64,000 nt of DNA, from positions 10,943,874 through 11,007,873 of the forward strand of contig OZ316894.1 in the NCBI GenBank assembly GCA_973895155.1. The letters run 5' to 3'. The position numbers were made by a program, and so were the translations under genes. Source of the DNA: Marsupella aquatica (lineage: Eukaryota > Plantae > Marchantiophyta). This document shows, one piece after another, positions 11,685-43,637 of the stretch; positions within the stretch are counted from its first letter, which is position 1; each line of letters opens with the position of its first letter. The notes below the pieces were generated by a model that saw only the letters and a program-made list of their open reading frames with translations, searched no databases and had not been told where the DNA came from.

Positions 11685-13904
11685 CCTGATCTCCTGGAGA
11701 GGACGTCCGCAAAGTCCCGGCCCTCCGCTCGAGCGGGTCTCAAATCCAATCCCTCAGACTCTAAATCTTTCCTTTCTTTCCGGCGGAAAGCATTGATGCT
11801 GCTCTGGAGTTAGGCCAGCCAAATTTCATAGTCAGATCTATTCGGACGCTCCTTTCCATTGCCGACTGCGTCTCTTTTGTAGAGCTCGTCGGTAGCGTAG
11901 TGCTCGCACGAAGCATTCATCAATCTGGCGATTCTGGCATTGTACGGACGTTGGCTCACAAGCTCGACAGCTGAAAAATGACATTCGGAATTAACTGGCA
12001 GACTAACCATGGCCATTGAGGAGTACCAACACTACACTGTATCCTATCTACTGTCCACTGAATATCTCCTAGAATCAGGAGGAGCAAGAGAGAGAAATGG
12101 GCCAGAGAGTTTCCTGCTGTGCGCAATGTAAATCGACACCGACGATTGTCCCATCTCTCCGGCGCATAACCGCAAACAACTATAAGGTTCGAAGTGACTA
12201 CATTTTGAAGGACTACCATACCCTTCGCAGGTTGGAGGGGACAGAGACGCGATCAAACTGCTTGACGATAAGTTGCAAAGGATGTCTATGGGACAAAAAC
12301 TTCTGAAAAAAATCCTGGTCTTCAAACGTAAGTACAGGGAGCATTGCATTGCATTGCATTCAATGCTCACGGGCTTCAATGGAACTATGATCTTCTAGAT
12401 TCAGCATTCAGTAAAATCAGGAGTAAACCTAGAAGTGGGTCACCCCGAGAATTCCTTCGTGAACCTGACAGAACCTCGACGTCTATGAGCAGCAGCATGT
12501 GGACGCGCCCGAGTAGCAACAACGGAGACAGCAGATGAGACACATGACTAGCTTTCACTCTTGAGGACAAGGGAAGGAGAATTCTTTTAGCAATGTGCTT
12601 CACTTCATGAATTGACAGACTTTCTCAAGACCTCTTGGAATTTCCTTCCTGCTCTATTTCATAGCTGATTTTCTGTCAGCACTATGGACTCCGACGTTCA
12701 ATTTAAGGCAGCTCGTGCAATCGTTCCACTCTCTCAATCTCGGAAGTGGCTCCTTTCAATGCGTGTAGTTGGGGAAACTCAATTCATTCGTACAACCTCT
12801 CTCCGGCGATCGCCAGTGTCTAACATGACTAACAACCACTTCATGCATTCGCTCGTCTATACTCACAGTTACCCGTACCTGACAAAGAAAGAAGGCAAGA
12901 AGGTTTACGTCCTTCATTCAAAGCAAGATAGATCCTCCGACGTCCTCAGGAGCTCATCTCCCATCCCACTCCACGGACTGGCATGCTCGCCTGACGACTT
13001 TCTCTCATCCCTTCCATCGATTCACCATCCTACGTCAACACTCTCGCTTGTAACACCACGAATAAACATCGACAACACAGCTCGTCCTCCGGCTCCGACT
13101 ACTTCCGCCCCCCTATCATCCACAACGTCCTCGATCGCCAAGCAGCCTTCGAATGATGCTCGTTACCGCCCTTGCCGTGGTGCATTCCCCAATTGCAACC
13201 GCAACGATCACTTTGTGAACTCCGCAAACGGCGCAACGAACAGACAAACGATCTCCAGTACACAATTCGCCGGCTGGGCCCAAAAGTGGCACTGCCTCGA
13301 TCTACAGGAGCTCGCTTCCACAATCAGCTGAACAATGGCACTCCGCCCGGGGTGTGAGGTCTGCCATTCGGACCGGCTTTCTCGAGCGTCGAAGCAAATG
13401 TCACCTGTACTTCATCGATCTAGATACCATGCTTTCCCAGTGACGCACCCTGCCCCACAATTGCTCCGACACGAATGTTCTCCTCAAACACCGGGTCGAA
13501 CGCCAACAGCTGAGCTTGTCTTGTCTCGGCTCTGTCGCACTCCTCCGGATCTCACGCAAGGCCGCACCTTCACGAGTTCACGCATTGCAAGACGACTCGC
13601 TTTGTGTAATGGTCCAGTAGGGCATCTCAAACTTGCTCGTCCTCTCTCCCGTTTTTGTACTTATACCTAACCAAACCCCAACTTTATGCCTTGGAAAAAT
13701 CATTTTGAATTCACAAGAGCATACAACAGGGTGGCAACACCAAGGGATTCACGGAGAGTAATCCCTGTATACTCATTAAATGTGCCTCGGTATTCTCCCA
13801 TTGCCTACCGGAAACCCTCCCTGTGTTTTAACATTTTTGGCTCAGTCCTTCTCACTTTTTCAGGCTAGAGAATCCTTTTTCTCCGAATGCTGTCGCTGCT
13901 GCGC

Positions 13905-20674: not shown

Positions 20675-23600
20675 ATCTCGTAATTTCAACAAGCCAGTCA
20701 TTCCAATGCTGTTCAAATGCGGAGTGGTCTCAACTTTGCCATAAATCTCCTTTAATACCTTCTCATAGTGGGCATAGCTGAAAGTTGGAGTTGCCTCTTG
20801 TAGTGGCTCACAATCCTCCAGTAGTGGCTCACCATCCTGCATTACAGGTTCATCATCCTCATTTCCCTCAGTTGATCCCGCGTTGGCTGGATCTATGATT
20901 GGCAAAGTCACATTTGCCACCTCTACATCAGGCTCTGGCCACAGTGCTATCTCAAATGCCAAGCCGCCTACCATAGTGCCATAGTGAGTTCCATAGGTTT
21001 GAAGAACTTTGGGCTCGGACAAGCCACTCAAAAGCAGCAACTTTATCTGCACATCAATAGAGAAATGCAATTATGAGACATTGTCATGATAATTAGACTC
21101 ATAATTCATATGAAATCACAGTTGTGGCTATGTAAAATTACCTGATGCTTGCAGGTATTCCCTTGCATACTAGATCCACAAGTGCAGACGCAACTATCAC
21201 CAAGGTATCCTTCAAGAACGTGCCACTCTTGGGTTTTTTTTTGGCTACATACAAATGCAATATTGTTGCCTTCCTCGTACTTAACATCATCAGCAGGAAT
21301 AGTCCTTGCCTTCAAGATGGCTTTCCAGATGATGTCTTCAATTTTCCAATTTCTGACTCACCCTTGCCACTTCATACAAGACATACACCAGTAGTGGTGT
21401 TCAAGGTGGTTAATCAACTGTTCTACCAACCAAACCACCTTTCGGCCTACCTTAGTAGACTTCTCTTCTCGCAGGTACCGCTTCAGAGTTACATGCCATC
21501 TCTCAATCGCCCCATTAGTGTTCTGATTGGCATGCTTGAAGGTCCTAAAGTTAATCACCCACTTACTGATCTTACAATGCCAGTACGTTTTGTAATACTC
21601 CACAAACAATGGCTGCTCATCTTTCCACGTTGCCATGAACCGAAGGGACTCTTTGACTGGGTCTGTAAAAGAAAACAGTGATTACATTAAATAGCAAACA
21701 TCAATAGTTGTAGAGGGTTAGCCCAAAGACTAGACACAAACTAAGATAAATACATTATGGGGACAAACTAGGGACAGAATTTACCTTTGTTCTTCTCATA
21801 TATGAGATCTCCAAGTTCTCTATTCAATTTTGCACGGGAATGTGGATCTCTAACTTTTTTCAATATGTTTTTAGTCCAGGCTCTCCTCACATGCCAGGCA
21901 CATAAAGTGATCGGAACACCTGGCCAAACCTCACTGCCAAAGAAAATACAGTTAGATGATATAATATTCAGACAAGATTGTTTCAATACACAAATTGTTG
22001 AGCAACAGTGTTAGTGTCAAATTACCTCAACACATTCTGTTCTTCGGCTGCACAGTCCACTATAAAGCAAGTTGGAGCCCATGCCTCGTCTAGGCGTAGG
22101 TCACACTGTCTGGTTCTTTCCATGGCTACCTTGACTGCTGTGAGAACTTGCCATAAATCTTGCTCTTTGTGGGTCTCCATTAGAGCCCAACATGTGGGAA
22201 TTCCATTCTGGAAGTCATCAAAACAAAGGAGAGTGTACAAAGAGTACTGCAAAACATTATAGAGCCAAGCTTAGGTCAGATTTATGAAGATATAGACACT
22301 AATGTACCAACTACATTGAAAAATACATTATACAACGAGCATGAGATTATTGCAACTCTCAAACAATAAAATGTGGTAAAATATCATGTACAGAATACAC
22401 CAAAAACATTATAAAAGGTCATAATACTAAAACTTTATGATAATAACATATGGTACAACAAAACATCTATAGAAAAAGTACTGTATAGCATTTTGGAGCC
22501 AACGTCAGGTTTCTGAAACCAATACAAACCACTACATGATAGTATTTAACTAAAGCATTCTGGAGCCAACATCAGAAACATGGCAAAGTATTTAACTAAT
22601 AGAGTGAACATTGCACAACCAAGGTCAGAGCATGTAACAGATACTCAATTTTAATCGGAATTAGACTAACCTCATACTCATTGACACCAAAAGTGGCATC
22701 CATGGACACAGCACTACCATGCCCAAGAGTGGCCATTTTTTTGAGTTGCCACTCTGTTGCAAACACCAACAGAAATGGAGCTTGTGTCTTCTCATCCCTC
22801 TCTTGATACAGCAACACTTGACAATCATTAGCCTCAACCCACAATTTGCATCCAACAGCATCATCACTCGCCCAGTGACTCTTCCGATTATTAATGGCCT
22901 TCTTGACATTTTGAATGTCCTTCAAGTCCAGTCCCATATCCCTTGTCCAGACTACATTGGCTCTGTCATCAACAAATTTCTTTCTATGCTCACGTAGCTC
23001 TGCCCTTTGGGCCTTAAGAACTCCCAATTCAGTCACTCCTGTTCGCAAGAGCCTCTCAATGCTTTCACGTAAGTCAATTGAAATTCGGGGGGCAATGTGA
23101 GCCCCCACATCCCATGCAGACCTGTCCTCCCAACCATGACAAAAATTCCCTGTATTGTCGACATGTCGGAATTCTGTAAATCAACAAGCAAGCATTTGGC
23201 CTCTCCACCTCCTTAAAATTCGCTGTAAAACTGAATCTAACCTCTCCTAAAAGACGCTCCAGTTTTTGTAGTCTGTCGAAGTGGCTTCTCTCCATTTTGA
23301 AGAACTCTATTTTCTGGCAGATCCTCACGTAAGTCTCCCCTGGCATCTTGGGGTCCATAACAACAGAGGTATCGAATGGTCACCCAACCCCGCTCTTTGT
23401 TTCTTACAATTGTTTCTTTTATTTTCAGACAGGTGTTGAATTTTTCATGACATTCCTCCCCCTTCAGCAAATCTTTGAGCCTGGATTTTGGTATCCAAGC
23501 TTGTTTCTGAAACCAAGTCAAATCATCAGAGGGAAATCTCCCTGGTGCTGGAATCTGGATTTGGTCACATTGCAGTGCACCATATTTATATCTTGATTCC

Positions 23601-23899
23601 ATGACGTTTGGGGCATTCCCATGTGACATCTGACAACCAAAAGTAAAAGTTGAATGATTAATTTTTGAAATCTAAAGAAAGGAAGTATTCCTATTCAGTA
23701 AGTATTTGATAATTATTCTATACAGTCAATCTCATTAAGTATACCCAGTTGGCTCTTTTATTTACTAACATCCAAACATTCTCAATGTGTATGCATAGTT
23801 ACTCTTCTCAGTCAGAACACACAGAGCAGGGTTTTTCAGTCAGTCGTATCAATTTATGTGGAGCCATTGTCTAAGGTCTTTCACAAACATTTAGACACT

Positions 23900-25309: not shown

Positions 25310-26758
25310 ACTACAGTGGTAGGAGAAGCGTAGTCCACATGAATGGCCAATGCTCATGTACTGGCAGGGAACCATTCAGTGTTTCCGTGATAGAGCTACA
25401 TTACTATCTATCAGGGCTACAGTGAGACATCTGATCCTATGGCACAAGTTGAGTTCATGGCGGGCAGGGTGGGACAGGTGGTACCTGCAATCTGTCCGCA
25501 TGAACTGCACAAAACCTGAATAAGCACTGTAATCAAAACACATATTTAGGTAGATCTTTGTTGTTGTTGATTTCCCAACCTGGATCTTAGCATGATGTTC
25601 GGCTCAATCCTTTCTAAGACAAACTATTCTAAATAACACTATGAAGAATGGACCTAGTGTGCTGAGCTATGGTCCTTCTAAATATTCCAGCAAACAATTG
25701 TTTGTAGGGTATGCCATAGTTTCCCAGGGACATCTCATTGCTCAGGTAGGGGTTAAGCAATAAAAATGTGAGTTGGTTGAAGGCGCAGAGTAGCAGGACG
25801 AGTTGGTGATGCCAGACAGAGGGTGTACTAGACCAGCTAAGAGACTAGGTTGCTCCAAATGTAGTGTAAGATGTCCTCCTATTCTTGCAAATTGCACCTA
25901 GTACACCAAGATGATTTGTCGTACAGACTCAGGTAGTTGGGGGTTTCTCCATTGCTGTGTAGCCGGGATTCTGTAGATCAGTTGCCAAAGGTAGCAATTT
26001 TCAGTTGCCGCCCTAAACAGAAGCCAAGTATTCTAGCCCATTTGGATATGGCCTTGTGAGTAGCAGTACGTCCTGGCTTGCCCCTGGGCACAGATGTGCA
26101 GTGTTGGTGTCAAGGAAAGATCTTCCATCTCTCCAGTTATACTGAGTGATAATGGCCAGGTCCCCAATGGGATTACCAATATGCTGACTGACCGTAGGTG
26201 TGGATGTGAACATTATGATCAACACACAGTTGAGTAAGGAGCTCACCGGAGGAGCATGGATAGCAGTAGGGTACAGAAAACCATTGGTCACAATGAACAA
26301 ATTAACCGGCTTGGAGTGGCCATGGGATCGTTGCCATTGTGAGGTGATGTGTTTGTGTGGTACCTTGAATTCCCAAATCAGGTGAGATTTATTGGGGAAG
26401 ATAGCGTCCATCAACAATGGCTCCTCCAACTCTCTATCAGAGTCCAACTCAGGTACAATCTTGAGATTGGCCAACAGATTTCAATAGGCAATTGCACAGT
26501 TCCTAGGTAAAAGTCAGGATCATCCTCCCAAGACAAGAGTTGCCCATCCGATGAAAGGACATCCTTCATAGTCACAAAATCAACATGATAGATTCTGGGT
26601 TGTGGATTAGACAAGCCCTTGACTTGGTTGCTACGTATGTGGTTGAGGTGTGGCCTCTAGAGCAGCAGATTGCGCCAGCCTTCCAAGTGACTAGGTGGAG
26701 AGGGGCGTAGCTGCTTCTTGATGACATTCTACCCGATGTGGATGTTGGTCCATACCTT
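25310..26758 (-). mobile_element. L1-type LINE, 3' segment (post-RT region and zf-RVT), degenerate
   Basis: CYLWQLIYRIPATQQW...WCTRCNLQE*EDILHYIW zinc-binding motif at ~25830-26000. The frame joins the 43638 segment across the CACTA TSD (PFGGC-K-VWTNIHIG*NVIKKQL). 3' end approximate. Confidence 0.8.
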
Positions 26759-29700
26759 CACTAGAAGAAAACCACCCATTCTGAGACCCTCCCCTATGTG
26801 ACTTGTGCGAGACCTTCATAAATATGCGACTCCAAGTTTGTGGGTGTCATGTTAGTTACATCATACCAACTAAGTTTTGGTGAGGTTGTGGGAAGTCATG
26901 CTTACAACTTTATCCAATGTCGCTATTGTAACACTGGTAAGTAAGAAATAGGTAAGTTATGTTAGTTACTCCACAATAGTGCAATATGAATTGGACATCA
27001 TTTTTTAAAATTCCGTCAGCATGCATACCCCATTAGCCAATTTCGGATGCCAATCCCTAATATGCAACTCCCGGTGCAACTACATATTGCACACTCATGG
27101 TTGGCGAGGTCCAAATATAATGGGTATAAATATGGGGGTTTTCATCAGAATGGTGGGTACTTTCACTTATAATGTGGATTCATACCTGACTATATTTGGC
27201 CTTGTTCTTGACCAAAGTGCACTCTCCCCACATTGAACTTTTTGCTAAGTCATTTGCATTGGTTCTTTTATGTCCAAACCAACCTGTTTGCTAAGTCACT
27301 CGATGGCTGCCCACATGTGAGGGGTACTACTTTCCCTCAGGGTCAATGTACCTTGGAGGTTGGTTTTGCGAGAGATTTTGGGGGTACTACTTGCCCTAAG
27401 TGTTCAGGGTCAGTGTGCCGTAGAGGTTGGTTTTGCGAGGGAAATTGGGATTCGACGACCTTCATTCCAGCTGCACTCTTCGCGAACTTCCTGCAGGGTC
27501 GTTTGAAAGTGTTTGAGCGAGACTGGACTTTAGGGTGCAAATGTGTTTAGGATTGGGCCTGCTACGAGCGTCAGTGTGGAGGTCTGCCAATCAGTTTTGA
27601 GGGGAGTCCATTGTCGCTTTTCAACCTGCTGGTGAGCTAAGCTGCTATTGAGTTTCAAGTGAGAGCTGCCGACTTGGAGTTGAGCTCTACGAGGTGGTGC
27701 CTGAGTGTACATCTGCTCGACATACTTTTGGGAGCTCGTAGTTGGTAGGAGGGCCAAGTCGTTGCACAAAAAGTTGCAGCCGTGACAGTGCAAACTAGCT
27801 AGGTGGAGGCTGGTTACTACAAGCAAGGCGAAGGATCACTGCGAGCTAGGTGGAGGAATGTTGCGCTGCTTCACATTGTCAAGAGACATGCTGCATCAGC
27901 CCAAGTAAGGTTGCATTGACCTATCTATCTCTATGTCTATAAGGTCCTAACCGATAGTCTGCTTAGTGAGGTCCTGCTTTAAGCTACATTTGTGCGATTG
28001 ATTGTGTCCTGAGAAGCTTAACCATCACATGGGGGAACGGTAGCAAGAAAGGAGGGGTGGAGCCTGATGGTCGCCAAATATTCAAACAGGGTCGCCTTTT
28101 AGGGTTTAAGAACAACTCATATCCTAAGTCCCGGTGTTGCAGTGGTGTCCCCGACCCTAAGATGCCACCCGAAATCATCTTTCTTGTTTCCTGCTGTTGC
28201 TGATCATGTATGTATGTTCTCCCCTATTTTTGCTTACTGATTGGTCTCTCCACACTTCTTGCTTGACATGACTGTTTTGCTCCTCCCTGTATCAGAACAT
28301 GCCTTGTGCCCCGTGCTCTGGCAATGGGGTGGGGGGGTGAACAGACGGCCTTAAGGTCCACTAAATTTATAGGAACCGTGCAATCGTTCAGCTGATTTTA
28401 GCAGCAAGTTCCCTTGCTTTCCCCTGTTTTTGCTAGGATCCCTCCCCACTAATCACATGCATCCTTTACTTTTCTCGGTGGCCCGTGCACCTGCCTTCCT
28501 ACTTTCGTTCTTATGGACTTTCCTTAGGTTTTCTTTCACCTGATTTTGGACTTTTTGCTCCGGTGCAATCTGTCTTGACAACTTGTGTTTGTTCTAATTG
28601 TTAATATCTCAAGAGGGTCGTCAACTAAGCTCACAGGAGTCAAAGCTAACTACAAGCTAGCAAATAGGGAGAATGCTCCCAAGTCGAGTCAGGAGGAAGT
28701 TACTAAAACTAGACCTTCAGAACTCTCAAAACTGGAAAGTGAAATTCAGCTTGAGACACGCAGCTGAAGGCCACAAGGATAACTATATGGCCACGCTGTC
28801 CCTCATTCAAGTCCAAAGTCCTCTTCAGATTGTCTGAACTCCTATCTGAACTCCTGAACTGGATGAAGTCCTGTCTGAATGTGAAGTTCAGATTGGCAAT
28901 CTCAAATGGCAAGTTCTGAACTCTTGTCTGAACTTCATCCACCCTTCTAAACTGGGATTTGTGCTACGTGTATAGACTCCACATTGTTGCTTCTCCCTTT
29001 CGGGCCAGCCCTCCTTGTGAAACGTAGGAGCACGATCATGGCACTTACACATAGTCTGACATTCAAAAAATGCTACTTCTCAGCAGCATGTTTCGAGTAG
29101 TTTGCCTGTGTGTTGAGCCCGGGGTTGAGCCTAATTATTTGTTTATTGCTTTAGTAACATGCATGGCCAATTGGTTTCTCTTCATGTAAAGGCAAGTTTT
29201 TGAAACTTACTACTTGAATTGGTGGTTTGAATTTAGTTAAGTGTTGAGAAATTAGCATTCACACTAACTATTTTTCTTTTGTGATTGAGTTCTCTTTGCT
29301 ATTGAATGTATTGAATAATTATTTCATCACAGAAATTTTCAGAACAAACACGGAAGCACCAGGGGGCTGAGGATTGGATATTGAGGCTGAAGACATTGAG
29401 GTAATAAACTGGGTGTGGTTCGGGTGACAATGTTAGCAACTGGTGCTTCTTCAGGGGAACTTCCCATGTGCAATTTATCCACACATGATTGACTTTGGTT
29501 CTTGCTGTTTTTCTTTTGGTGTACTCTTCAGTTTGGTGTCACTCTATCCTTTCCTGTAGCCTCGAAATAGGAACACACCTGCTTAGTGGTCCCCAATTGC
29601 CCAATGATTTATAATGACTGTGTCTAGGCGATGTATGCATTGCATGTTCATTCCAGAAGAATGAATATGTACACTTTGCACAAACCTGGACAGATTTTGA

Positions 29701-30105: not shown

Positions 30106-30445
30106 TCAAACAAATGTGTTGGGCTTGGTGGCCTTGTAAGTCGTCTTTAGCTTTCGCGATGGAGGTTGAATCTTGCGGTACATCAAGGGGAACTTGATCT
30201 TTGAATCATGGAACTGCTTGGTACTTTCTCGCTTGCACAGAGAGACAGGGACTGTCATAGTCTTGATGATCTGGATGCAAGGGAACCGAACTCTATGACA
30301 AGAAGCCATCTCATCATACATCTGCTGTGTGGTTGTTTAATGTGGTATCACGATATTTCTTGTACATGTTGGGATAACCTGTACAACTCTGATACCTCAC
30401 CCAGATACCAAAGTTCTTAATTGTGGTGGGCTTCTTTTCGAAGAT
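30106..30445 (-). pseudogene. RPL18A: Captured terminal exon of 60S ribosomal protein L18a (eL20)
   Basis: After acceptor ctaccag: [37 protein letters not shown] [frameshift] [22 protein letters not shown]...[40 protein letters not shown], clearly plant RPL18a. Confidence 0.93.
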
Positions 30446-31452
30446 CTGGTAGACACATTATTCAGCATTTGCTAACTTCGAAACTAGAAGGGTAACACAT
30501 TAAACAACAGAGAAACTCACAACATCCTCCTTTGGTCCTTCAGAGTCTGTACTTTGATTATGAAGTTTGACTGAGTTTCTGTTTACTGAAAGAATGTGAC
30601 TGTGTAAGAGTTCCGTTTGGCAGTGGATTGGTTGAAGCACTTCATGCTAGTGTGTTGTCCACAGCTCTTCAACCAGCTTTCGTCTTCCTTGTCTTTCACC
30701 ACTTACGATGACATCAATTCAGCTAAGACCATAGAAGGTTCCAAAGCATCTAACTTGTAAAATCGCATTCTGTTACATCAAGGACTAAGGTGTTGGGTGC
30801 CAAAGGAGACAGCACAACAAACACGCTGAAAGACTTCAGGACTGGGTTCAACAAGGTAGTGAAGGTGCTTAGAGCCATAGTAAGTATGCATTCTGTATCT
30901 TTCTCTGTTGATGTGAGCTTGTGCATAATGGGAGTTGTAGTTGGCAAGAGTTCCAAATATGAATAGATCCAGAAGTATGTGATCATGTACTTGCTCTATA
31001 AAGTTCTGAAGATATAAGCATTTTCTGTTAGACCAGGCAACTTGGGAGTTGGTAAGTGTCACCTGCATCTGAGGGGCTACACCGGGGCATCAGTGGAGGT
31101 TCACTTGCACAACACGACAACCAGTGAATTTTCTCTCTGCTGCAACCTGCAAGGTGAGACTTTCGGTCTTTCTGGATGAAAAAACAGGAGTTTAATATGA
31201 TTGATATACATGTTCGTCGAGAATATGGGTTTATCACCAAGCTCTTTGTCTTAGGAAACTCATAAACTCAGAATCAAATATGTACTATGCACGTTTCATG
31301 CTATGTGTATACTATGACCTGTAGTTGGAACCAAGACAATGAGTGGGAACTGATTAGTTTAGGTGGTTGCTGTTGGCGAGGCAAGTCGACCTCCTGCTCA
31401 CCTTGCTCATCAAAGGACGTGAACAGAGGACATCACAACGAAAGCAACACTT

Positions 31453-31902
31453 ATGGTGAGGACCCGCAACGCTGAACATGTGCGACTTGCACGCAAGGCA
31501 GAGATGTTGCGCCTTGAGTATGTCAGACTTGGGATCCTTCCAGCCCAGTCTGCATGGTACTTTGAGTACCCTGTTGTTTCCAGGAACAACTACAGCCGGC
31601 CTCTACCTGCTTCAGTACCCTTCCCGACATCCTTGGTATTTGTGTCTCTTGTACATGACCCGCCACAAATTAGGTGCCAAGGGTGTGTACACAGTTGCCA
31701 ATATGACTGTCCTGCCTGTAGGGCTTCTGGCCCAGAATTGGATGACCGTTCTCTTGGATGCCGATTTTTGCACAGAGCACAATGTATCATCTGGAACCAC
31801 TCGCCATCCTGCAGTGTGCCTGGTGATGTCACTTGTCCTGCCCTCCCAGACCCCACCACCGGTGACTTTGGTGTCTACACATGTTTGGATCACATGCTCT
31901 AG
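31453..31902 (+). CDS. CACTA accessory ORF1, Cys/His-rich putative zinc finger (PHD-like), 149 aa
   Basis: Open from ATG to TAG; CQGC..CPAC..CRFLH...C..CLDH pattern; basic N-terminus MVRTR. Family not recognised with certainty. Confidence 0.5.
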   Translation: MVRTRNAEHVRLARKAEMLRLEYVRLGILPAQSAWYFEYPVVSRNNYSRPLPASVPFPTSLVFVSLVHDPPQIRCQGCVHSCQYDCPACRASGPELDDRSLGCRFLHRAQCIIWNHSPSCSVPGDVTCPALPDPTTGDFGVYTCLDHML

Positions 31903-32602
31903 AGGACCACTTGTCACACCGCATGCACAGACCAGATACCATTGACCTATAGCTTAACACTCTGACTTCAACATAGAGGATATTTACTTAAAATTTTGAT
32001 GTATGAGCAATTTTGGGTCCAGGGTTTAGGGTCAACAGTACATAACTTATATCCTATTATGCCTGCACTAAGCAAAATATCCTAATTTAAGAGGCTAGCA
32101 AACTCGCATAAAAGTCTCTATTGAAAGACTGCTTTCATGACTGCTTTAACCTGGTGAACATTGCAACGTTGAATGAATTAATGGGCCATGTGATAATATG
32201 CAAAATGTGATTTATGCCTCACTTATTTGTCTCAGCCACTATCATAACCTATTTAGGATGTATAAATTTCAACCCTTATGACACTGCTTCATACCAATCC
32301 TCTTCGAAGAATGCCTGTTTTACATGTCACGACTATTGTATGTGATTCAAATGCATGAAATGTTGTTGCAGATCTCCTTTGGTGAATCATAGCCACAATT
32401 AAAATTGAGGTGTTGGTGGAGAAATTGTATTAGGGGATCAGTTTTGCGTGTGGGCTCAACATACCAAAAGTATGTGTGCTTCGCATCCTTGTGTGGCCAT
32501 TCCAATTCATTGCAGTAGCAAATGCCTTTGTACCTTAAATGCTAAATATATTTTACTTTCTGTGTAGTCTGCTAAATTGTAGAGTCTATCTCATGCGCAG
32601 GC

Positions 32603-33285
32603 ATGGCACGGCCTAAAATTCAAGCCAAAAAGCGTGTGACAGAGGTGAGAAACACAGGTGTACTTGGGGCAGATGCTACTAACTTCTCTGCAAGTCAGAT
32701 TTTCCAGAAGGCAGCTCATTGTTGTGCCATTTGTGACGATGGTGGGGGCCTGGTCATTTGTGAGGGCCCTTGCATGAGGCATTTCCACCTCAACCCGGAG
32801 TCTGACCTTGCTGCAGAAAACAACTGTCCAGGGGTGGGCCTCCCGTCAACACACCAGGGAGATTGGATGTGCACTGATTGTTTGGAGAAGCAGGCTAAGT
32901 GTGCACAATGTGGGAGTTGTTGGGGTCCTATGAGGGCTCTATTGATGCTGCAGCAAATGTTAGGAAATATCCAGACCGTTTTTGTGTGAGATTTTTCTAT
33001 TTTGAGTGTTTGCCTGCTCATGCCACAGCTTGCCCACTTCATAGGTGCAAGGCATGTGGTGAGCATGATGATGACTACTGGACTGACATAGTCCACTGTG
33101 CTAGGTGTCCCACTATGTGGCACTATCATTGCCTGAAAGATCATCAAGCAGAGGGTTATGCTTGTGACAGAGAAATCTATGATCACTCTGCACATGGTGT
33201 TGATCGATGGATATTTTATTGTCATCGCCATGCCATTGATCCTACCTCGCGCACTCCTGTGAGAGATCACATATCTTGGCTGTGA
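32603..33285 (+). pseudogene. CACTA accessory ORF2, stand-alone EDM2-type composite PHD cassette (one frameshift near 32912)
   Basis: CAICDDGGGLVICEGPCMRHFH...C...W.CTDC...KCAQCG | LGS...C.RFF..EC...CPLHRCKAC...CARCPTMWHYHCL...IFYCHRHAIDPTSRTPVRDHISW parallels the EDM2 PHD region as I recall it (CAICDNGG..CCEG.C.RSFH ... CPLHKC..C ... CRRCPKSYH ... IYC..H.ID....TPVRDH). Confidence 0.85.
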
Positions 33286-33877
33286 AGCTAAACATTGTAC
33301 ATGCACAGTGCACCTGATGTGGATGTACTATTTTTTGAGATTGCAGAGATTCCAATTTTGAAAAGGAGTTGGGTAGGTGAGTTTATATAGGCAGCACTTA
33401 TCTTGTGCTCTGGCGTCAGTGGCTGGGTACATGCCTATACAAACTTATCCTTACAAGCCTTCTTGGAAGTATTTAGGCTGAGTGGTCATTTTCATAAACA
33501 CTTTCATCAGACTGCTAAATTAAAACAGGACTTCTAAGTTGTAAGCGTATAAATTATCAGGCATGCAATTAATCAAATTGCCCTATAAGTTTATCATTGA
33601 ATGTATCCTCCTTTACAACAAAATATGTATGTGCCATGACAAGTTGGTTGCACTTCATTTCACCACGGATATGGATTTTGTAGTATATATTCAAACAATG
33701 TCCTGCATCCGTGCAGGTGCCTAGTACGTATTGTTCACATATCCCTTGTACCTATCAAAATCGGACCTGAGCACCAGTGGGCCAGATCAACTCAAAAGGC
33801 AGGAATTTTGTTGTCCTTGTATTGTCAGGTGAACCCATTCTTCCAAAATTCACTGTCATCACGTAGGGTGTGTGTAC

Positions 33878-34750
33878 ATGGAGCCTGGTAAACGTAGAAA
33901 GTGTGACCACCCAGCAGTGTTTACAGGGGTCAGAGCGATTTTGGTCCATGGCCAGCATGGGTTGACCAAAGTGCATTGGCCAACTGTACAGAAATGATTC
34001 TCTGAGCTCCATGGCACTGTAGTTCAGGACATCACTCCAGAGACTACACATGTTGTTGCAGGGACATGGCTATCAGTGATAAAGAAGTGGTCATGGTCCT
34101 ACATGAATTCTGCAATTACTAAGCAAGGCCTAAAAGTAGTTGAGGCCTCTTGGATCACAGATTCCATAGCACATAAGATTGTACAGGATACTGAGCAATA
34201 TGAGTTGTGGGAGGATGAAGAAGCTACTGCATCAGCTTGGGCTGAACAAGAAGTCTGGGAAGCAAAGGCACGGCTTGCTGATCTCCAATATGGACCTGTA
34301 CTCAACAAAGGACAGAGCTCTACAAGGCTGAAGAGTATGTTGGCTGAGGAGACGAAGCAACCAACCCCCATTCTGAAAGGGCTGAGCATGGTATTTGTGG
34401 AGGCGGGAATTGGAGAGGTTAAGTGCAAAGTGTACAAGTCCACAGTGCTTGACCTAGGTGGGACAGTGGAGGAGAATATAACAGAGGACACCACTCATGT
34501 CATTACTAAGTCATATCCCAAAGCCTGCCGCAAGTTTGGGAAGGGAGACATTCGCTTTTATGTCATGTCCCATAATGTGTTTGTGGTTTCATATGCTTGG
34601 CTTGTGGAATCAGTAGCAGCTGGGAAGCGTCAAAACCCAATGGACTATGATCTTTTTGAGGCCTGGCCATGGAAGGGTCAGGATCCTTACAGAGAGGACT
34701 ATGAGACAACAAGTGAGGAATGGGTCATTAGCGATTCTGAATCAGAGTGA
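33878..34750 (+). pseudogene. CACTA accessory ORF3, tandem BRCT protein (Pol lambda-like BRCT), 290 codons with one in-frame TGA at 33995
   Basis: MEPGKRRK..VFTGVRAILV...*FSELHGTVVQDITPETTHVV...VVEASWITDSI (BRCT1) and ILKGLSMVFVEAG...LGGTVEENITEDTTHVI...KFGK...SYAWLVESVAAGKRQNPMDYDL (BRCT2); acidic tail. Confidence 0.82.
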
Positions 34751-35324
34751 GGAGTAGTAGCATCAGTTTGGACACAAGTTTTTTTGTATAAATCAGATCA
34801 TTGAAATAAATGTGATCTTTGAACTAATGTACCTTGTTATGGTTGGTGGCAGTTGGGCTTATTTTACTGTTGGCGGATTGTTGTTTCCTGCTGCCTGGGG
34901 GTGTCACTGTAAACGTACATGCAGAGGCGGTACATTTGAGGACAGCGGAGGAGGTGGTGACACCCTCCAACATTTAGGAATTTTGTGTCATTCACTTGAC
35001 AATAGGTACACTACTTGCGAACCTGTTTTTTTCTTTTGGGGTGGTTTAGGGTTTGTGAGAATTTAGTACACGTTATGTTAACTCTTTTGGCAGATACAAT
35101 CAGGGATATATGGAACACAAATACCACCATTAGGCATCCTTGTTCACTGCTGTCCATGACTGCAGAGCTCCCAGCCTGTTACAATGCACCCTGGTCACCA
35201 CCCTCCCCAGACCCAGCCCAGGGCACAGGCACTGCCTTTGCATCATCCCACAAGGATATCACGCCATGATAATAAGCTTTGGCAGCGTGAAAGGTTACGA
35301 ACCAGACTTTCAGGAGCCAGTAGG

Positions 35325-38300
35325 ATGAGATGTCCTTGTGCAATCTGCCAAGGATCCCGTACCAGGGGTCTGAATGAGGTTTGGCGGCATATCGCGGTTC
35401 ATGGAAGAGATCCACGACATCGAGTTTGGAATGATCCTGCAGAGGAAGATTCTTCCGACGAGAAGTGGAGGTTAGAATTTGATGCTGCCAATGCTGCAAG
35501 ACGAGCAAGTGAGGTTCTGCCTGGTGCATTTGAAAATGTTGTAGCTGGTCTCTGTACGTGGGTTGTCAGCTCTCCAACGGGATGGTGCTCAGGCAGCACC
35601 ACGTGACGAAGGAATTCATGTGGAAGAGATGGTGAGAGACATCTTCCAAGACTTGGATGCATTTCATGATGGGCTGGACAACAAAGAGGATACGGCTGCA
35701 GATGCAAGTGTGCCCCCTGTCGAAGAGCCTCTTGATGAGTTTGAGATAGGGCAGGAAACCCCTGGGCATGATGGGATGTTTGGCTCTCCCCTGCAAATAC
35801 AGGAAGGCAGGAAGTCTTTGTACCCCGGTAGCAAATGTTCTAAACTGGGATTTGTCATCATGTTCCTGAACATTTGCGGCAACCACAATGTCCCCAACAT
35901 TTTGGTTTATGAGTTGTTGGCATTCTTGCGAACAACTGTGCTACCAGATGGTAATATTTTGCCCAAGAACATGTACGAAGCAAAAAGATGCATATCTAAT
36001 CTTGGATTGAACTATGATTCAATCCATGCCTGTCCTGATGGGCATGTTCTTTTCAGAAAGGAGTATAAAGAATCGTTGATATGCCCTAAGTGTGGGAAGC
36101 ACAGGTATCGGAACTCAGGAAAGTCTATGGTTCCCGCCAAGGTACTTCGTCATTTTCCACTCATTCCCAGACTTCAGCGGATGTTCAGAAGCCGTGCCAT
36201 CTCGGAGATGATGACTTGGGCAACTGACAAGAAAAGTGATGATGGGCTACAACGACATGCTGCAGATTCAAGGCAATGGAAACTCATAGATGAGATGTAT
36301 CCCGAATTTGCTGCTGAGCCAAGGAATGTCAGACTTGGGCTGTCATTGGATGGGGTAAACCCATTTGGAGACAAGAACAACAAATTTTCGTGCTGTCCTG
36401 TAACTATTTTGAATTATAACCTTCCTCCTTGGATGACTACAAAGCGATTTTTTATTCTGATGGTCCTACTGATACCAGGGCCAGACAGTGCTGTATCTGC
36501 CAACATAGATGTGTTTCTGGCTCCCCTAGTGGAGGAATTGAGAAAGCTTTGGGAGGAAGGAGTTCTCACATATGATGTCCTACAGAGGCTTGGGAGGTTA
36601 AACCCATTCATCCTTAGAGCCATTGTCATTCTGACTATAGCTGACTACCCAGCCCATGGGATGATATCAGGCCAAACAACAAAAGGATATTGTGCTTGTA
36701 CTATCTGTGGGCGCAATGTCACCAGTGAGTACTCCAGAGCCCTGCAGAAAGTGATATACATGGGCCATCGTCGTTGTCTGAAGGCAGATCACCCTTACAG
36801 AGAAAGACAGGCACTGATTGCACACTTTGGCAATGAGATTGAGCAACGTGGACCCCCGGCACGAGTGACCAAAGAGGAGATCAGGCAGTGGGGAGCACTG
36901 AGGGATGACTATATCAAACGAGGGGGCAGGGAAGATGGAGTGAGTGATCCAATAAAGCGATATGGTGTAAAAAGACTGAGCATATTGGACTTGGAGCTCA
37001 AGTACTGGAGGGTAAGCCTCTTGGAGTTGATGCTAATTGGGATACATGTTTTGGTTCAGAGCATGTGCATTCATTTCGAAGAGAGAGACTAAACTTGAGG
37101 CATTTCCTGACGCTTTTGCATTGCAACGATGCAGGAGTTTGGGCCAAGCAAACATAACATTGATGTTATGCACATTGAAAAGAATATTTGTGAGAGTCTA
37201 CTCAGATTCTTGTGTGGAGAGAAAGACACTGGTTCAGTGAGATTGGATCTTGAACAGAGGAGAATGAAACCCCATCTTTGGTTGAGGCCACATGCCCACA
37301 GAGCTGATGTGCTCTTGAAGTACCAAGCGCCCTATGTTCTGACAGACACAGAGTGGGAACTATTTGTGCAGAGGTTGAGTTCTTTGAAGGTTTCTTCAAA
37401 CTATGGCAGTGCTTTCAAGAAGCATATCATGACTAGAAAGCTTGGTAGTATGAAAAGCCATGACTACCATATGTTGATGCAACAGGTGTTGCCTTTATGC
37501 CTGAGGGGCCTGTTGCAGAAGCCTGTTCGTACTGTGATCATGCGACTCAGTGATGTGTTTCGTCGTATTTGTGTGAAGGTTTGGGATGAAACACACTTCC
37601 CACAACTGACAGAAGATGTCGCTTAGGTGCTGTGTGACCTGGAGATTTATTTTCCTCCCGCATTTTTTGATGTCATGACCCACCTACTTGTCCATGTTGT
37701 GGAAGAGCTACACCAATTTGGGCCTGTGAGTGCTCGTTGGTTGTACCCTTTGGAACGGTACATGAAGCTACTCAAAGGTCACGTGAGAACATATTACAAA
37801 CCTGAAGCAAGCATGGCTAAAGGTTACATCAAGGATGAGACTCTGGGATTTCTGACCGAATACATAGCACAATATGAGCATGTGAAGACCAGGGTGTGGA
37901 ATTCTGATGAGGAGGAAGGGGTGATAGGTGAAGTACTGGAAGGGGCTGTAACCACAAAGAACCTGACCATATCTATGAGAGACTTGGCACATGACTTTGT
38001 ATTGCACAACACTGTGGTGATGGAACCCTGGATACAGTGAGTGCATACATGTGCTATAATCCAGTTCATGAGCTTAAATGTTGTGTTCGTGTGGTTTTCT
38101 CCTTCAGCCTGTTCATGTTTACCCAAGCTAATGCTGTGTGGTTGTTCGTTCAGGGAGTATGAGTCATTGAAGGCGGCCCATCCCACTGCAGGAACAACTT
38201 TTCCAGGTTTCATGGAGTGGATCAGAGTGGCAATTAGAGAGCATCACGAGACCCACCCAGACATGGATGCAGATGTTTACCTACTGTCTAATGCCCCTAG

Positions 38301-38919
38301 CCTGAAAGTGAAGACTTACAAACGGATGAGAGCATATGGGAATCACTTCCGAGTGAAGGATGGTGACAGTGCCTACAGGGTGACGAATGACTGCGGGCTC
38401 ATCACTGTATTTGAGCAACAGAGCCACAATCACGACAGGGCCTGGATGGAGATGGGATATGTGGGAGAATTAGTTGACATATGGGCTCTAGACTATGGGG
38501 CGGTGTCCAGTCCTGTGATTCTTATGAAAGGTTCATGGGTGCGGCAGGATTGGCTTGGTAACAGGGCTACCATGAAGAGAGACAACGACGGTTTCTTGCT
38601 GGCCAATTTCAGAGGGAAATTGCCCGAATGGTCTGAGCCATTTGTGTTTCCTAGTCAGGTGGAGCAAGCTTTCTTCCTGGATGTGGAAGACTCCCCAGGT
38701 TGGCGTGTAGTGTGTCATAAACAGGCCAGGCAACGTCGGATGGAAGGATCAAACCTTGAGTTTCATTTACACTCTCATAGTGCCTTTGATCGTCGGCGTT
38801 CAGACCAAGTGCCTGTAGTTCATGATAGCGGGGACTTCATTCCTGTGACAAGGGTAGATGCATTTGCTGAAGGAGGCGAATTCAGAGATGCAGATGCCAA
38901 CAGTGTGCCTGTGCCATGA
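35325..38919 (+). pseudogene. CACTA transposase (TnpD/Tnp2), multi-exon, one premature TAG at 37624
   Basis: CPC..C N-terminal motif; IHACPDG, CPKCG..RY, HFPLIPRLQRMF, RNVRLGLSLDGVNPF, YNLPPW, DYPA, HNIDVMHIEKN, MKSHDYH, PPAFFDVMTHLLVH, YPLERYM..LK, EPFVFPSQVEQ.F. Introns at about 35508-35569, 37012-37134 and 38037-38153. Confidence 0.93.
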
Positions 38920-39075
38920 GTAATGTGAATTGTTTGCATGGACATTAGTGAGGGGAAGGATGTGTAATAAAGTAATTCTGAAGCAACACAGATGTATGGA
39001 TGGATGCCTGGTGATTGTGGTTGCATTGTGTTATACGGGGTGACCATAGATGACATGTTTTTGTGGTCCAGTAGG

Positions 39076-42000
39076 ATGGAACAGAGTGACACAGAGATGT
39101 GTGAGTATGAAAGGAAAGCTATGGAACAACGAGCATACGTGAAAGCCAAAATCGCAGAACTGGATCTGGAAAAGGATGTGGCTGAATTGTAAGGGAACGA
39201 TTCTCAACTACACCCCTCCGCTGAGTTTGTGTGACATGAATAGTTCAATGTGGCACTGAAATTGTGACTGTATTCTCATATTGGAATGTCGCAGAGCCAC
39301 AACATTTTCAAAGAAACAAAAGGAGTACGCAAGAAGGGTGACCAGCACTATCTCTGGGCTTGTGCGTCGGAGTGATAGGTTGAGCAAGAAGGTCGTACCT
39401 ACAATGGCAGAATGTGGAGATGACATTGATGCTGCACAGGTGGGTGCAGACACTAGACAAGAAGATGCAGATGATGAGTATTTTCCAGAGGAAATGGATG
39501 AGGATGGGGGTTATGAAGATGAATACATTGCAGAGCAGCCCCAAAAGAAACATGTAAGGAGTTTTCCCAACAAGGTTTTGAGTTAAAAACTCTTGTTTAG
39601 AGGTTTCATATGTTCAGTACTACACATATGTACCTTGCTTAGTTCCTGACATTGTAGTTGGTGATGTGATGCAGCGTCCTGCCAGTTCTATTTTGCCTTC
39701 GAAGCCTGTGCATGCACCATACCAGCAGGGGGGGCTGACCTCTGATCAAGGTTGGCGAGGTGGTAGTAGTGGTAGATCCCAGGCTGGTGCCCAATACTAT
39801 GGCAGGGGGCAAGCTCTAGGTTATGCCCGTGGTAGAGGCAGAGCAGGTCCAAACCCACAATCTCGTGGGTATGGACGTCCACCTTAACCATGGGGATGTG
39901 AGTATATATCTATATGCCAGTTCTTTGTGAAGGCATGGCACTCCTGAATTTCAGACTGCATATCAATTTTTGACATTGTTTGGGATGTATTGGATTCAGA
40001 CAACATGAAATTCTGTCCACCTGCCATTGCATGCAGATTCTGCCCAACCTGATTGGGCAAATGCTAGTAATGATCAGTTCCAATGTCCACAAGGACAGAC
40101 ATGGGTTGAACCAGGTTGGGAGGATGGTGGTGGGTCGTGGAATGAACAAGGTTGGGAAGGTGGTGAAGGTAATTGGCAGGGATATCAAAATTCAGTACCT
40201 ACAAACGTTGGAAGAGGAGCAGGTAATGTCTGATCTTGTCAGCAATGGAAGAACTCATTATATGTGGAGTCCATTCACGTGGGGGGGACTCTGCACATGT
40301 ATAATGATAGAAAATGTATGTGTGCAGGTTGGACAGTCGAACCATCGACTCAAGTATTCACTAATGCCCCTATGCAGATGCAGCACGGAAGGGGGACAGG
40401 TATGTCGGTGAATGTTCAGTTGTTTTCCTACAGTTTGTACTTAGTTTTCAGTACATATGTTTGCACACACATACCTAGAAAGTGACATCATCCGGCCCCT
40501 GTACTAGGCTGGACAGGTGGTCCAGGGTCGCAACAATTTTAGAGTGCAGTCCCTGCACAGGCATCTACAGGCAGAGCTACAAGTATGTACGTTTGAAGAA
40601 TTTTTCTTGAAGTGAAGCATTGAATGTTGCCGTCATCCATTCTGCTATATGTAGTTCTCAAGCATGAATGGCATTGTATTTTCCCAGGTGGCTTCAGAAC
40701 CCCAGGTAGGGTGAATGAAGGGGTGGCCAATACAACGCCCAGTACTACCGAGAGCAGTGCACGAGGGGAGGTGACAAAGAAAGGGAACGTAAAGTTGAAT
40801 GAGAGACAATGGGTGGATGCTGAGTGTCCTCGCAAGAACCGATGGCATGCTGATTTGAAAGCTGAAGTATTGCGTTGGTTAGATGTGAGTGTTATTAATT
40901 TTAAAAAACAGCATCCAAAAGATTGGAAGACTGTATGTGAAAATGTTGTTGCCAAATGGAATTATGTGGGCAGTGATGATGGCATGGACATAGGTTGCCT
41001 AGAGAGTACAGCAGGTAAAATTATCAAGCAAGAGAGGTGGAGAATGCATAAGGCTTGGAAGGAAGGTGGGGAGAAGCCAGATATGCCTCCACCAGCCAGT
41101 TGTGATGATAAAGTGTGGGCAAGGTTAGTAGCTTATTTTGTAACAGATGCTTCAAAAAAGAAGAGTTCACAGATGACCGAGGCCAGGTTGAGTGTTCAGA
41201 ACCCTAATCTGACAGGAAGGACCGGCACTGCACCGATAGCTAAACGTTTGGTAAGAATGAATGGCCTAGCTATGTAATTTATGCTACGCTATGTACTGTT
41301 TTTTAGTGTAAAGCCATATATGTAAACTTTGTTTTTTAGTGTACGTTCCCTGAATATTGATCGATAACTTGTGTTTGTCATGCATGTGCAGAAAGCCCAA
41401 TTGGGGCAAAGCCCTTCAAAAGAAGAGTTGAGGGCTGAAATTGTGAACACCCGGGCTCAAGAGGGTGCATCTGAATCCTCCAAGCATGTAAGTTATATGA
41501 GTTCTGATTGGTAATTGAATGACCTGCGTTGAATTTCAGGTGTACACTGTATATAACATTGATTGTGCATATATTGCCCAACATTTCATATGGAGTGATT
41601 GAACCTATACCCCTGTGTCATGTAGGGAGGTGGATCTTCACTTACAGAGATAAGTGGTCGTTTGAAGGCTGTCAAAACATGTCTTCCAGAGATCAATGAA
41701 CGTTTGAATTCATTGACTGACTTGTTCCATGTGAACTTCAAGACATTAATGGAAGCTGTTGTGTCGGTGAGAGATAAAATTGATTCCAATTCTGCAAGAG
41801 TTCCACCATCACCACTTGAGGTGGCAAAGTCGATGCACTCTTCTGGCATGCCAACGACATGTAGGCTTGAAGGTAAGGCCTTTACAACTGTGTGGGATAT
41901 GATTATTAAATGTATAGTTTGAATTGACATTGTTTGTTGAATGTGTTATTTTCAGTAACATATATTGTGGTTGTTGTGTCCATAGAGAATAAGACAGGTG

Positions 42001-42782
42001 CTACAGAGAAGAAGTATGAGAACCTGGAAAATACTCGCTGTAATTTAGAGGCAACAAAGTTGCAGTCTGTACAAGCAACTTGTTTGACAGAGGGCAGTCA
42101 ACCATGTTTGGATGAGGATGACATTGGCAAGGGAGTGGATGATATCAATGTTGGGGCAAATGAGGATATCAGCAAGCATGACAATGATACCATTGAGCCA
42201 GATTCATGCTATGTAGATCTTGACTCCATTGCAGAGATAAATGATTTGCAGAATGTATCATTCTCAATGACAGGTGTGCCTCTTGTTGAGATAAATCCAA
42301 CCAAAGAGTTAGTTGGTATGACACTCCCAGGTGATGAACCTGCTACTGTGACAGTCCTAACAGAGGAACCTATTGAGCCTAGCTTCACTACTGTGAAGAG
42401 AGGAAGCATGCGCACACGAAGCAAGTCTGCTGGTGGGAGCAAAGCCACGTCAAAGGTTTTATACAAACCTCCAAGAACAGTGCTGACAGAAAGATCTAAG
42501 GTGGAAGTGGGGAAAGCACCTAATGCTGAGGGACAAAGTGGCTTGTTAGCTGTTGATGAGAGTGGAACACGAGTAGGATTTGCCAGAGTGCAGGTTGGTT
42601 CCACAACGTTCCATGGCAAGAGGATTCCCCCAGGTTATTCAGTAGTGTTAGTCACATTACTAGTGAAACCTAAAGCTGTCCTTCCCATTCCAAACACAAA
42701 TGATGATCCTCCTCAAAAGACACTTGGAGATGCTGCAGGTTCTTTGGTATTATGGCCAAGCAAGTTCATAGAGGATCCATAA
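39076..42782 (+). CDS. CACTA ORF2 (TnpA-like), multi-exon; exon structure only partly resolved
   Basis: Ptta/En/Spm-like segment W..LV.YF...S.....AR....P...GR.G.A (41100-41250); C-terminal FHGKRIPPGYSVV.V...A.LPIP...TLGDA.G..VLWP motif typical of CACTA ORF2; low-complexity RG/G/Q exons in between. Confidence 0.72.
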
Positions 42783-43637
42783 CAATGTCATGCCATTATT
42801 TGTTTGTAGTGTGAGTCATGTTATGTAGATTTTAGATGTCAAGAAGCAGTACAAGAATCATGTCCTCTTGGAGATTCATAGTATCATGCATGTGCTTTCA
42901 GTTATCTCATCCTACAGTCATCAATTATGAGTTCCTTGTTTGTCTAAATTACATTGATCACATTGTAAACTATTCCATTGGAATTCAAATGATCTTCATT
43001 TTTTAGCAAGATTGTGATTGTGTTTAATTCTTATGAATGTTTTATGTAGGATCTGCTTATATGATGCTTTGTTTCGTGTGGATGTCATTCATGCTATGTT
43101 CATTTCTTGTATTCAATGTGTTATATTTCTAAAGTTAGAACATCAGGTTTCTATGTATTGTAATGTCGAGTGCTCTCTCTCCTTATGAACTGTCCCTTTG
43201 TGTTCATTAGTCATGGTTATAACTTGCATGTGAACCTTATTAGTTATAAACATGAGTATATAGAGTCCCAAATGGTCCTGTTGTGTGACGCGGGCCAGGG
43301 TCTCCATTGGTCTCTCCTGTGACACTAAATAGTCACACGCTAGTCGTTGTTGAATGCGAGTAAGTCATGTATGTGACTTACGATGTGACTCGCTGAAGTC
43401 ATATTGCAGTCACGTCGAAACAAGGCTAGACTCCACAATAAAGTCACAGATCAGTCACAAATGGGTATCAAGCAAGTTGCAAAGCCCAGTATCAATAGTG
43501 ACTTCCATTGTTTGGTCTCAACTTTTGCAACTCCAAGGGTCACAGCGTGGGTCAAGTCACGTTGAGTCACAATGAAGTCACATGAGCCAAAATGAGTCAT
43601 ATATTGCGGTCTCAGTTCACCTCGGATTCTTCTAGTG

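Follow-up and report, generated by a model that had tools for sequence, protein, structure and literature searches.

The 64,000-nucleotide stretch analysed here (the window) covers positions 10,943,874 to 11,007,873 of contig OZ316894.1 (GCA_973895155.1) and contains a CACTA transposon of 16,879 bp, measured in window coordinates, with three small genes upstream of its transposase gene, TnpD. With good probability, these three frames are selected accessory genes of the element. The left end (26756–26769, plus strand) consists of a CTT target site duplication (TSD; 26756–26758) followed at 26759 by the terminal inverted repeat (TIR) CACTAGAAGAA, and the right end (43627–43640, minus strand) of the matching TIR (43627–43637) and a second CTT (43638–43640). 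Exact pattern matching finds CACTAGAAGAA at only two places in the window, 26759 on the plus strand and 43627–43637 on the minus strand. The termini are of the 5'-CACTA...TAGTG-3' type, the TIR is perfect over 11 bp and the 3-bp CTT duplication flanks both ends, as in CACTA/En-Spm elements. The flanks belong to a decayed long interspersed nuclear element (LINE) on the minus strand, recognised by RVT_1 matches, and the LINE frame is continuous across the empty site. The TIR- and TSD-defined ends proposed in the initial annotation are thus borne out by the perfect repeat, the paired CTT and the restored LINE frame.

The three open reading frames (ORFs), referred to here as the cassette, are all on the plus strand. 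ORF1 (31453–31902), taken from the list of open frames and compared with relatives, is open and encodes 149 amino acids; it is rich in Cys and His and is a predicted zinc binder. ORF2 (32603–33285), assigned from Pfam and relatives, encodes a stand-alone array of EDM2/NSD-type PHD fingers, 226 amino acids long in relatives, and changes frame near 32916. Its leader, ARPKIQAKK (32606–32632, plus strand), is in register with the N-terminus of histone H3 and, from a profile and motif counts, is a candidate mimic. ORF3 (33878–34750; Pfam and relatives) comprises 290 codons for two BRCT domains and an acidic tail, with a premature TGA at 33995–33997 (codon 40). Three intronless frames upstream of TnpD and in its orientation had been described: the starts at 31453, 32603 and 33878, the common strand and the position upstream of TnpD stand, but only ORF1 has an unbroken frame. 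The absence of introns fits the coding parts, the relatives being single frames of equal length, and an intron as the cause of the ORF2 frame change was ruled out, since the relatives are colinear single frames of 220–226 amino acids. TnpD is itself broken twice, by a frame change near 35604 and a TAG at 37624–37626, and the lesions in ORF2, ORF3 and TnpD indicate that the window copy is dead. The observed-to-expected ratio of CG is 0.19–0.39 in the cassette ORFs, 0.35 in TnpD and 0.50–0.92 in host exons, so that the CG depletion of the cassette resembles that of TnpD and not that of host exons.

Acceptor-like sites lie just before the starts of ORF2 (32567 and 32600), ORF3 (33828), TnpD (35093) and a TnpA-like gene (39071). 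By an ad hoc score these rank 20 and 38, 5, 11 and 49 among 1182 AG sites, and the site before ORF1 ranks only 102. From these signals, the cassette and transposase genes may have introns in their 5' untranslated regions or a common spliced leader.

Public runs that match the cassette stretch wholly or partly number ten; five share half or more of its words, and none is recorded as RNA. Four runs, X3, X2 and X5 (organisms A, B and C) and X6, were aligned to the stretch, which ended at position 35000; the best-matching run may derive from the source organism of the window itself. The alignments comprise 1821 (X3), 4297 (X2), 223 (X5) and 60 (X6) contigs in identity bands from 99+ down to <90%, with 30/30 bins covered in X3, X2 and X5 and 27/30 in X6. 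The share of contigs continuing into unlike sequence is 0 in X3 and X2, 0.07 in X5 and 0.06 in X6. At position 33995 a sense codon is present in 43285 of 46874 (X3), 22890 of 26855 (X2) and 86.9 of 86.9 (X5) units of depth, or 85–100%; depth here gives no copy number, and summed depth is no basis for ranking genes or counting copies. Of the depth covering 32916, which amounts to little of the total in its bin, 1826/1826 (X3) and 6607/7686 (X2; 86%) lack the two surplus letters, and two Tyr codons of ORF2 are Cys codons in all covering depth. The frames are therefore not peculiar to this copy, as they are multi-copy and open in most covering contigs. The variants listed are 40 of 335 substitutions and 12 of 33 indels, and among these the ORFs, which make up 54% of the stretch, contain 12 of the 40 substitutions (p 0.0017) and 1 of the 12 indels, the frame-opening one (p 0.0013). 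Among the variants listed, both indels and substitutions avoid the ORFs.

More distant comparison is provided by Logan contigs: for every ORF they contain two relatives that are full-length and agree with it in start and end. Identity to these is 60 and 54% for ORF3, 56 and 55% for ORF1, and 75 and 71% for the N-terminal part of ORF2 (relatives of 226 and 220 amino acids). When neutral substitution, without indels, was simulated to the same identity, the frame stayed open in 1 of 5000 runs for ORF3, in 191 of 5000 for ORF1 and in about 1500 of 5000 (some 30%) for each half of ORF2. Two further tests, of conservative change and of Cys and Trp retention, were conditioned on an open frame, with 1000 neutral runs each. 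The changes in ORF3 are more conservative than those of 1000/1000 neutral runs against both relatives. ORF2 keeps 25/25 Cys and Trp residues against both relatives, which per half is equalled by 14–101 of 1000 neutral runs, and its conservative-change counts are 194, 40, 34 and 0 of 1000. Coding constraint judged in this way is strong for the BRCT protein ORF3 and the PHD protein ORF2, and weak for ORF1. Scanning metagenomes with alignments of the PHD and BRCT proteins returned 139 and 598 pattern matches, none of them confirmed; the PHD patterns miss the window's own protein.

These results bear on the possibility that the three frames are neutral Pack-type captures hitchhiking in a high-copy family, the open relatives being rare survivors found by gene callers. 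Two of the three ORFs are indeed broken in the window copy, protein databases list open frames only, and the constraint on ORF1 is weak. Against this, the simulated frames seldom stay open for ORF3 and ORF1, the openness-conditioned tests still reject neutrality for ORF3 and ORF2, and nine PHD rows that are only 42–79% identical share 30 invariant columns, mostly zinc ligands and core residues. A near-host fragment free of constraint, as expected of a neutral Pack-CACTA capture, describes an RPL18a scrap elsewhere in the element; it does not describe ORF2 or ORF3, and ORF1 is weakly tested in this respect. We consider neutral capture very improbable. The view that these are long-maintained transposon genes rather than random Pack-type captures, advanced in the initial annotation, is supported by the open sister frames, the full-length relatives, the constraint and the distant PHD clade described below.

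The halves of ORF2 match NSD-type PHD models of Pfam, all below cut-off, and P0006, a member of the same family, contains three such models in order, likewise below cut-off. P0006, used as query against 1.84 billion representatives, returned 248 matches. Among the best 150 of these, the top seven are short stand-alone proteins (43–64% identity) and are followed by long EDM2-like proteins (approximately 31–50%), the named ones coming from Calypogeia, Marchantia, Riccia and Ceratopteris and including an annotated EDM2 of Neltuma. The label 'EDM2-type' is accordingly apt, EDM2-like proteins being the next matches after the stand-alone clade. A long branch separates nine stand-alone PHD rows from all the rest, with SH-aLRT support of 100 in a 49-row tree (9 stand-alone, 10 other short and 30 long proteins, truncated family rows being left out) and 100/100 in a 24-row tree from which the long-branch P0149 and P0029 and other short rows were left out. 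As the trees have no outgroup, neither a donor nor an order of events is claimed. The stand-alone clade joins the tree beside a liverwort group of shorter EDM2-like proteins, one of which, P0020 from Calypogeia, has the pre-PHD1 motif of the clade and ends just past the PHD array. This placement, in an unrooted tree with long branches, suggests a liverwort-type donor and host of ORF2. The best local identity of the stand-alone proteins to any long protein is 30–46%, which excludes a recent capture of ORF2; for the PHD protein, at least, there is no close host paralog. The family is 220–245 amino acids in size and consists of the PHD array only, without the large multi-domain architecture of EDM2. 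By sequence comparison, ORF2 is a descendant of an EDM2-like PHD array.

The shorter EDM2-like proteins of liverworts, with a C-terminal PHD array, form a second EDM2-like group there (P0020, P0023, P0025 and P0164), and short PHD-only proteins on a separate long branch (P0046, P0048 and P0083) may represent an independent capture.

The distribution of the stand-alone proteins also bears on whether the selection could have acted in a host, the block being a lineage-specific host family, or domesticated copies, that a CACTA family picked up and amplified. The CACTA context of the diverged relatives is an assumption, the element does capture host DNA, as the RPL18a scrap illustrates, and P0020 ends just past its PHD array, as ORF2 does. 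However, not one of 13 stand-alone PHD clusters that were checked traces to an annotated genome, unlike the EDM2-like host proteins of Marchantia, Riccia, Calypogeia and Ceratopteris, and some 10 of the 15 family representatives are cut short or run out of frame towards the end, in the manner of decayed repeats. Three single-exon genes arranged head-to-tail with the CG depletion of TnpD, and indels that avoid the ORFs among the variants listed from sister copies, likewise argue against selection in a host, which appears improbable.

Changes in ORF2 are seen towards its N-terminus. They were followed in 20 family rows: the window, P0006, P0007, two cluster members and 15 representatives picked by eye or for their pre-PHD1 signature. 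In 19 of the 20, the eight positions before the first Cys of PHD1 contain no acidic residue, and a His lies two positions before that Cys in 19/20. Each of the 102 other matches (out of 135) that fit the pattern has between one and four acidic residues there. In AIRE-type PHD fingers, an acidic stretch before PHD1 helps to bind the H3 tail. A leader of the form [AST]-R-x-K is found in 16/20 family rows, versus 1.6 expected by shuffling and 6/124 other matches; it sits 28–48 residues before PHD1 and follows Met directly in 8 of the 16. A longer leader register is matched by 14 family rows (0.1 expected), and the R and K hold the H3 register across rows that are 42–53% identical. A profile of the leader, made from seven chosen rows, was compared with 177,635 PDB chains and returned histone H3 residues 1–11 as its sole match, at a non-significant E of 1.1. 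In PHD2, ORF2 has a Cys where 128/135 other matches have His; the Cys pattern is present in 10/19 family rows, many of the others being truncated. When the leader was modelled in complex with the PHD array of the same protein, the prediction scored 0.25 against a mark of 0.34.

The combination of a retained zinc scaffold, a lost acidic patch and an acquired leader suggests that ORF2 would likely display a false H3 tail, and with an H3-like tail gained and the patch lost a decoy fits better than a plain reader. Of the earlier term 'chromatin reader', the EDM2-type PHD array stands and the reading function is weakened. Rather than reading histones, ORF2 may serve as a histone decoy.

Two alternatives retain a reading function for ORF2. 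In the first, the PHD array would read a chromatin state and direct the transposase towards safe sites, gap repair at insertion would be recruited by the BRCT protein, and the basic leader would be no more than a nuclear localisation signal. The open frames, the constraint and the PHD clade fit this equally well, the PHD1 core aligns with PHD1 of AIRE (E 3.8e-4) with its zinc ligands kept, the window copy was inserted in a decayed LINE, and loss of Arabidopsis Pol lambda (AtPol lambda) is reported to lower T-DNA integration (PMC4444747). The acidic patch that aids H3 binding in AIRE-type PHD fingers is nevertheless missing in nearly all family rows, and the H3 register of the leader R and K would seem more exact than an import signal needs; we regard targeting as unlikely, if a serious contender. 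In the second alternative, ORF2 would act as EDM2 does, binding H3K9me2 on the element body and recruiting ASI1/AIPP1 for full-length transcription of the silenced element. EDM2 is described as binding H3K9me2-marked regions and suppressing proximal polyadenylation (PMC7529245, PMC7472560), and such help would be useful because H3K9me is reported to persist on TnpA-activated Spm elements (bioRxiv 10.64898/2026.08.24.746577). This is quite improbable for a protein that consists of the PHD array alone, lacking the DNMT1-RFD region and all other parts of EDM2, and that has lost the acidic patch and replaced the PHD2 His by Cys.

The tandem BRCT assignment for ORF3 is confirmed by two BRCT stretches in Pfam (E 1.5e-13; BRCT_2, E 1.7e-11). 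The two units are alike, with scores of 77–106 versus approximately 29 for shuffles, which points to internal duplication. BRCA1-type pairs are close-packed, with a short linker and a pocket containing Ser/Thr-Gly plus Lys. In ORF3 the linker is about 50 amino acids, Ser-Gly follows the first strand in 1/3 rows, and the predicted model is poor (pLDDT 36.5); its top Foldseek matches, to DNA ligase IV, were set aside. The second unit presumably resembles the BRCT of plant Pol lambda, a comparison suggested in the initial annotation. An origin from Pol lambda was not confirmed: among PDB entries ORF3 has low-scoring, unspecific matches (Rtt107, BRCA1 and ligase IV), with the human Pol lambda BRCT last of 38 at E 1.1 and no plant Pol lambda among the targets. 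The resemblance, if right, would matter because the BRCT domain of AtPol lambda binds LIG4 and XRCC4 and AtPol lambda has been linked to excision-site repair (PMC4444747). A conserved acidic tail is seen in ORF3 (34664–34747), P0002 and P0003, with 8–10 Asp/Glu in the last 28 residues and Thr/Ser before the acids; its composition makes a kinase site or a histone- or DNA-mimicking patch possible.

For ORF1, nine Cys/His positions are kept in three rows. Searches of Pfam, Atlas, PDB sequences and folds gave no match (best Z 4.1; model pLDDT 59), which does not imply a new fold, and a viral scan found no relative. From these alignments, ORF1 is a conserved protein family without known fold. Its basic start, MVRTR (31453–31470), is conserved in 3/3 rows and is loosely H3-like.

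Taken together, the cassette may plausibly encode non-catalytic decoy or adaptor proteins that blunt chromatin silencing and steer the repair of transposition breaks. The cassette genes would be expressed when the element is active, and the three proteins would act jointly. ORF2, with its zinc scaffold kept, would present the false H3 tail and so soak up or redirect host writers, erasers or readers of H3K4 and H3K9. ORF3, with BRCT domains and no attached enzyme, would dock with end-joining factors, or compete for them, where the element excises and inserts, and ORF1, as a predicted zinc protein that likely binds nucleic acid, may supply sequence specificity. We hold this mechanism, taken whole, to be plausible if somewhat short of probable. 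A more specific version remains doubtful. In it, the element would stem from an old CACTA lineage, probably from liverworts, whose PHD scaffold, derived from EDM2 and rewired, displays an H3 mimic; with a BRCT adaptor that arose by duplication and a zinc protein of a new family, this would make up a virus-style decoy kit against H3K4/H3K9 silencing that also steers break repair.

Several points weigh against the accessory-gene and decoy interpretation. The diverged relatives lie on contigs of 0.9–13 kb, and a CACTA context is an assumption for them. The cassette is not covered end to end by any one contig, nor is it connected to TnpD or to a TIR in any, the aligned stretch having ended at 35000, so that linkage of the cassette to TnpD is observed in the window copy alone; the variant tables and the depth at 32916 cover only the fractions given above. 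The weak constraint on ORF1 is seen both in conservative change (15/1000 and 445/1000 neutral runs) and in Cys and Trp retention (173/1000 and 52/1000), and Cys and Trp are not over-conserved in ORF3 (372/1000 and 443/1000). For the leader, the motif was set post hoc, the rows are related and include several near-copies and fragments, only half of the motifs directly follow Met, and the H3 profile match from chosen rows falls short of significance; basic residues are equally expected of a nuclear localisation signal, which is a real rival. The PDB matches of ORF3 are too weak and generic to name a BRCT donor. CACTA elements, moreover, already have an anti-silencing factor in TnpA (bioRxiv 10.64898/2026.08.24.746577).

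Anti-silencing accessory genes of transposons are already known, and it is the present gene set that appears new. Arabidopsis EN/SPM2, 5, 6 and 9 are CACTA elements with separate TnpD and TnpA genes (PMC13547354). The window element resembles them in its CACTA ends, 3-bp duplication, subterminal repeats and a TnpD followed head-to-tail by a TnpA-like gene, and differs in having three more conserved genes upstream of TnpD; neither PHD nor BRCT occurs in the main text of that paper. TnpA itself is the anti-silencing factor of Spm/CACTA elements, as reported in a survey of 962 Spm proteins (bioRxiv 10.64898/2026.08.24.746577). The VANC anti-silencing proteins of VANDAL MULEs and the KIU/Ulp1 captures (PMC13317346, PMC13547354) are likewise cases of a DNA transposon keeping a host-derived chromatin domain as an accessory gene. 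They belong to another superfamily and use other domains (MAIN-like, Ulp1), and the function of VANC has been demonstrated, whereas that of the cassette is inferred; the three cassette ORFs have no VANC-type Pfam match. Fungal EnSpm, Plavaka and other DNA transposons encode TET/JBP dioxygenases, a proposed counter to methylation silencing (PMC12730594). The parallel lies in an EnSpm-type element carrying an added gene with a proposed role against silencing, but TET/JBP is an enzyme and the cassette offers binding modules only, and PHD and BRCT are absent from the main text of that source. Capture of gene fragments by Pack-CACTA elements (PMC13317346) fits the RPL18a scrap exactly; the three ORFs are unlike such scraps in being whole, on the same strand, constrained and far from hosts.

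ORF2 has the same type of PHD array as EDM2 of the ASI1-AIPP1-EDM2 complex. Compared with EDM2-like proteins, it is 226 rather than 700–1800 amino acids long, has no other EDM2 domain, and shows the lost acidic patch, the H3-like leader and the His-to-Cys change in PHD2. Viral H3 mimics such as ARSK of influenza H3N2 NS1 compete with histones (PMC6028506), and NS1 similarly places a short H3K4-like motif on the protein of a genetic parasite. The ORF2 leader differs in forming the N-terminus of a transposon PHD protein and is a candidate only; the word 'transposon' does not occur in the main text of that article. The loss of the acidic patch and the gain of the [AST]-R-x-K leader in the stand-alone PHD clade are newly described here, and no earlier case of histone mimicry by a transposon protein was found in the literature searched. 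The literature search likewise found no CACTA element with BRCT and no DNA transposon with a captured BRCT accessory protein, although Repbase, subscription papers and the supplements of the Spm survey may list such ORFs.

The counter-silencing factors known from transposable elements either bind DNA sequence-specifically (VANC, TnpA) or are demethylases, as with fungal TET/JBP. If the proposed mechanism is true, proteins that only bind, drawn from a heterochromatin reader of the host and from a repair adaptor, would give transposons another means of countering the host, and an H3 mimic encoded by a transposon would connect transposon biology with viral histone mimicry. Small single-exon genes would make two matters testable: high copy number in silenced plant genomes, and control by an element of the repair of its excision sites.

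The overall layout of the remainder of the element, with TnpD, a TnpA-like gene, repeats and a captured scrap, is ordinary CACTA anatomy. The TnpD gene (35184–38921, plus strand, start approximate) has two predicted introns and matches Transpos_assoc, Transposase_21 (E 1.3e-67), DUF4218 (1.9e-26) and DUF4216 (1.1e-4). A separate multi-exon TnpA-like gene follows (39076–42782, plus strand, limits approximate), assigned from splice-like sites and a Transposase_24 match (E 3.4e-5) that is below cut-off. Its presence in a probably non-flowering plant may be noted, as TnpA-like proteins are stated to be confined to flowering plants (PMC13547354; bioRxiv 10.64898/2026.08.24.746577). By motif counts, a subterminal cluster of short AGTCAC-type repeats occupies 43238–43626, and AGTCAC occurs 11 times in the two 400-bp ends versus six times in the 16-kb interior; by analogy with known CACTA anatomy, these repeats are likely TnpA-binding sites. 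The RPL18a scrap noted in the initial annotation is indeed a captured, frameshifted 3' part of that gene (30109–30457, minus strand; PF01775, E 1.7e-5). Apart from this, the 37 open stretches of the 5' region of the element gave no credible Pfam match. A 67-bp two-copy repeat is present near the left end (27321–27449), and two exon-like stretches upstream of ORF1 (30754–30880 and 31032–31155) have donor- and acceptor-like ends and no Pfam match.

Outside the element, a 259-codon open stretch on the minus strand (5143–5919) has a weak trypsin-like peptidase match (Trypsin_2, E 6.9e-5), with no obvious host gene near. Broken frames at 21136–23671 (minus strand), which we take by eye to resemble a MULE-type transposase, have no Pfam match at E 0.01. 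Copia-type retrotransposon coding regions were recognised by eye at 16114–19563 and 55390–59434, both on the minus strand, the second with long open frames. The host genes are a GT10 fucosyltransferase (9554–11753) and a queuosine salvage protein (50691–53443), also on the minus strand.

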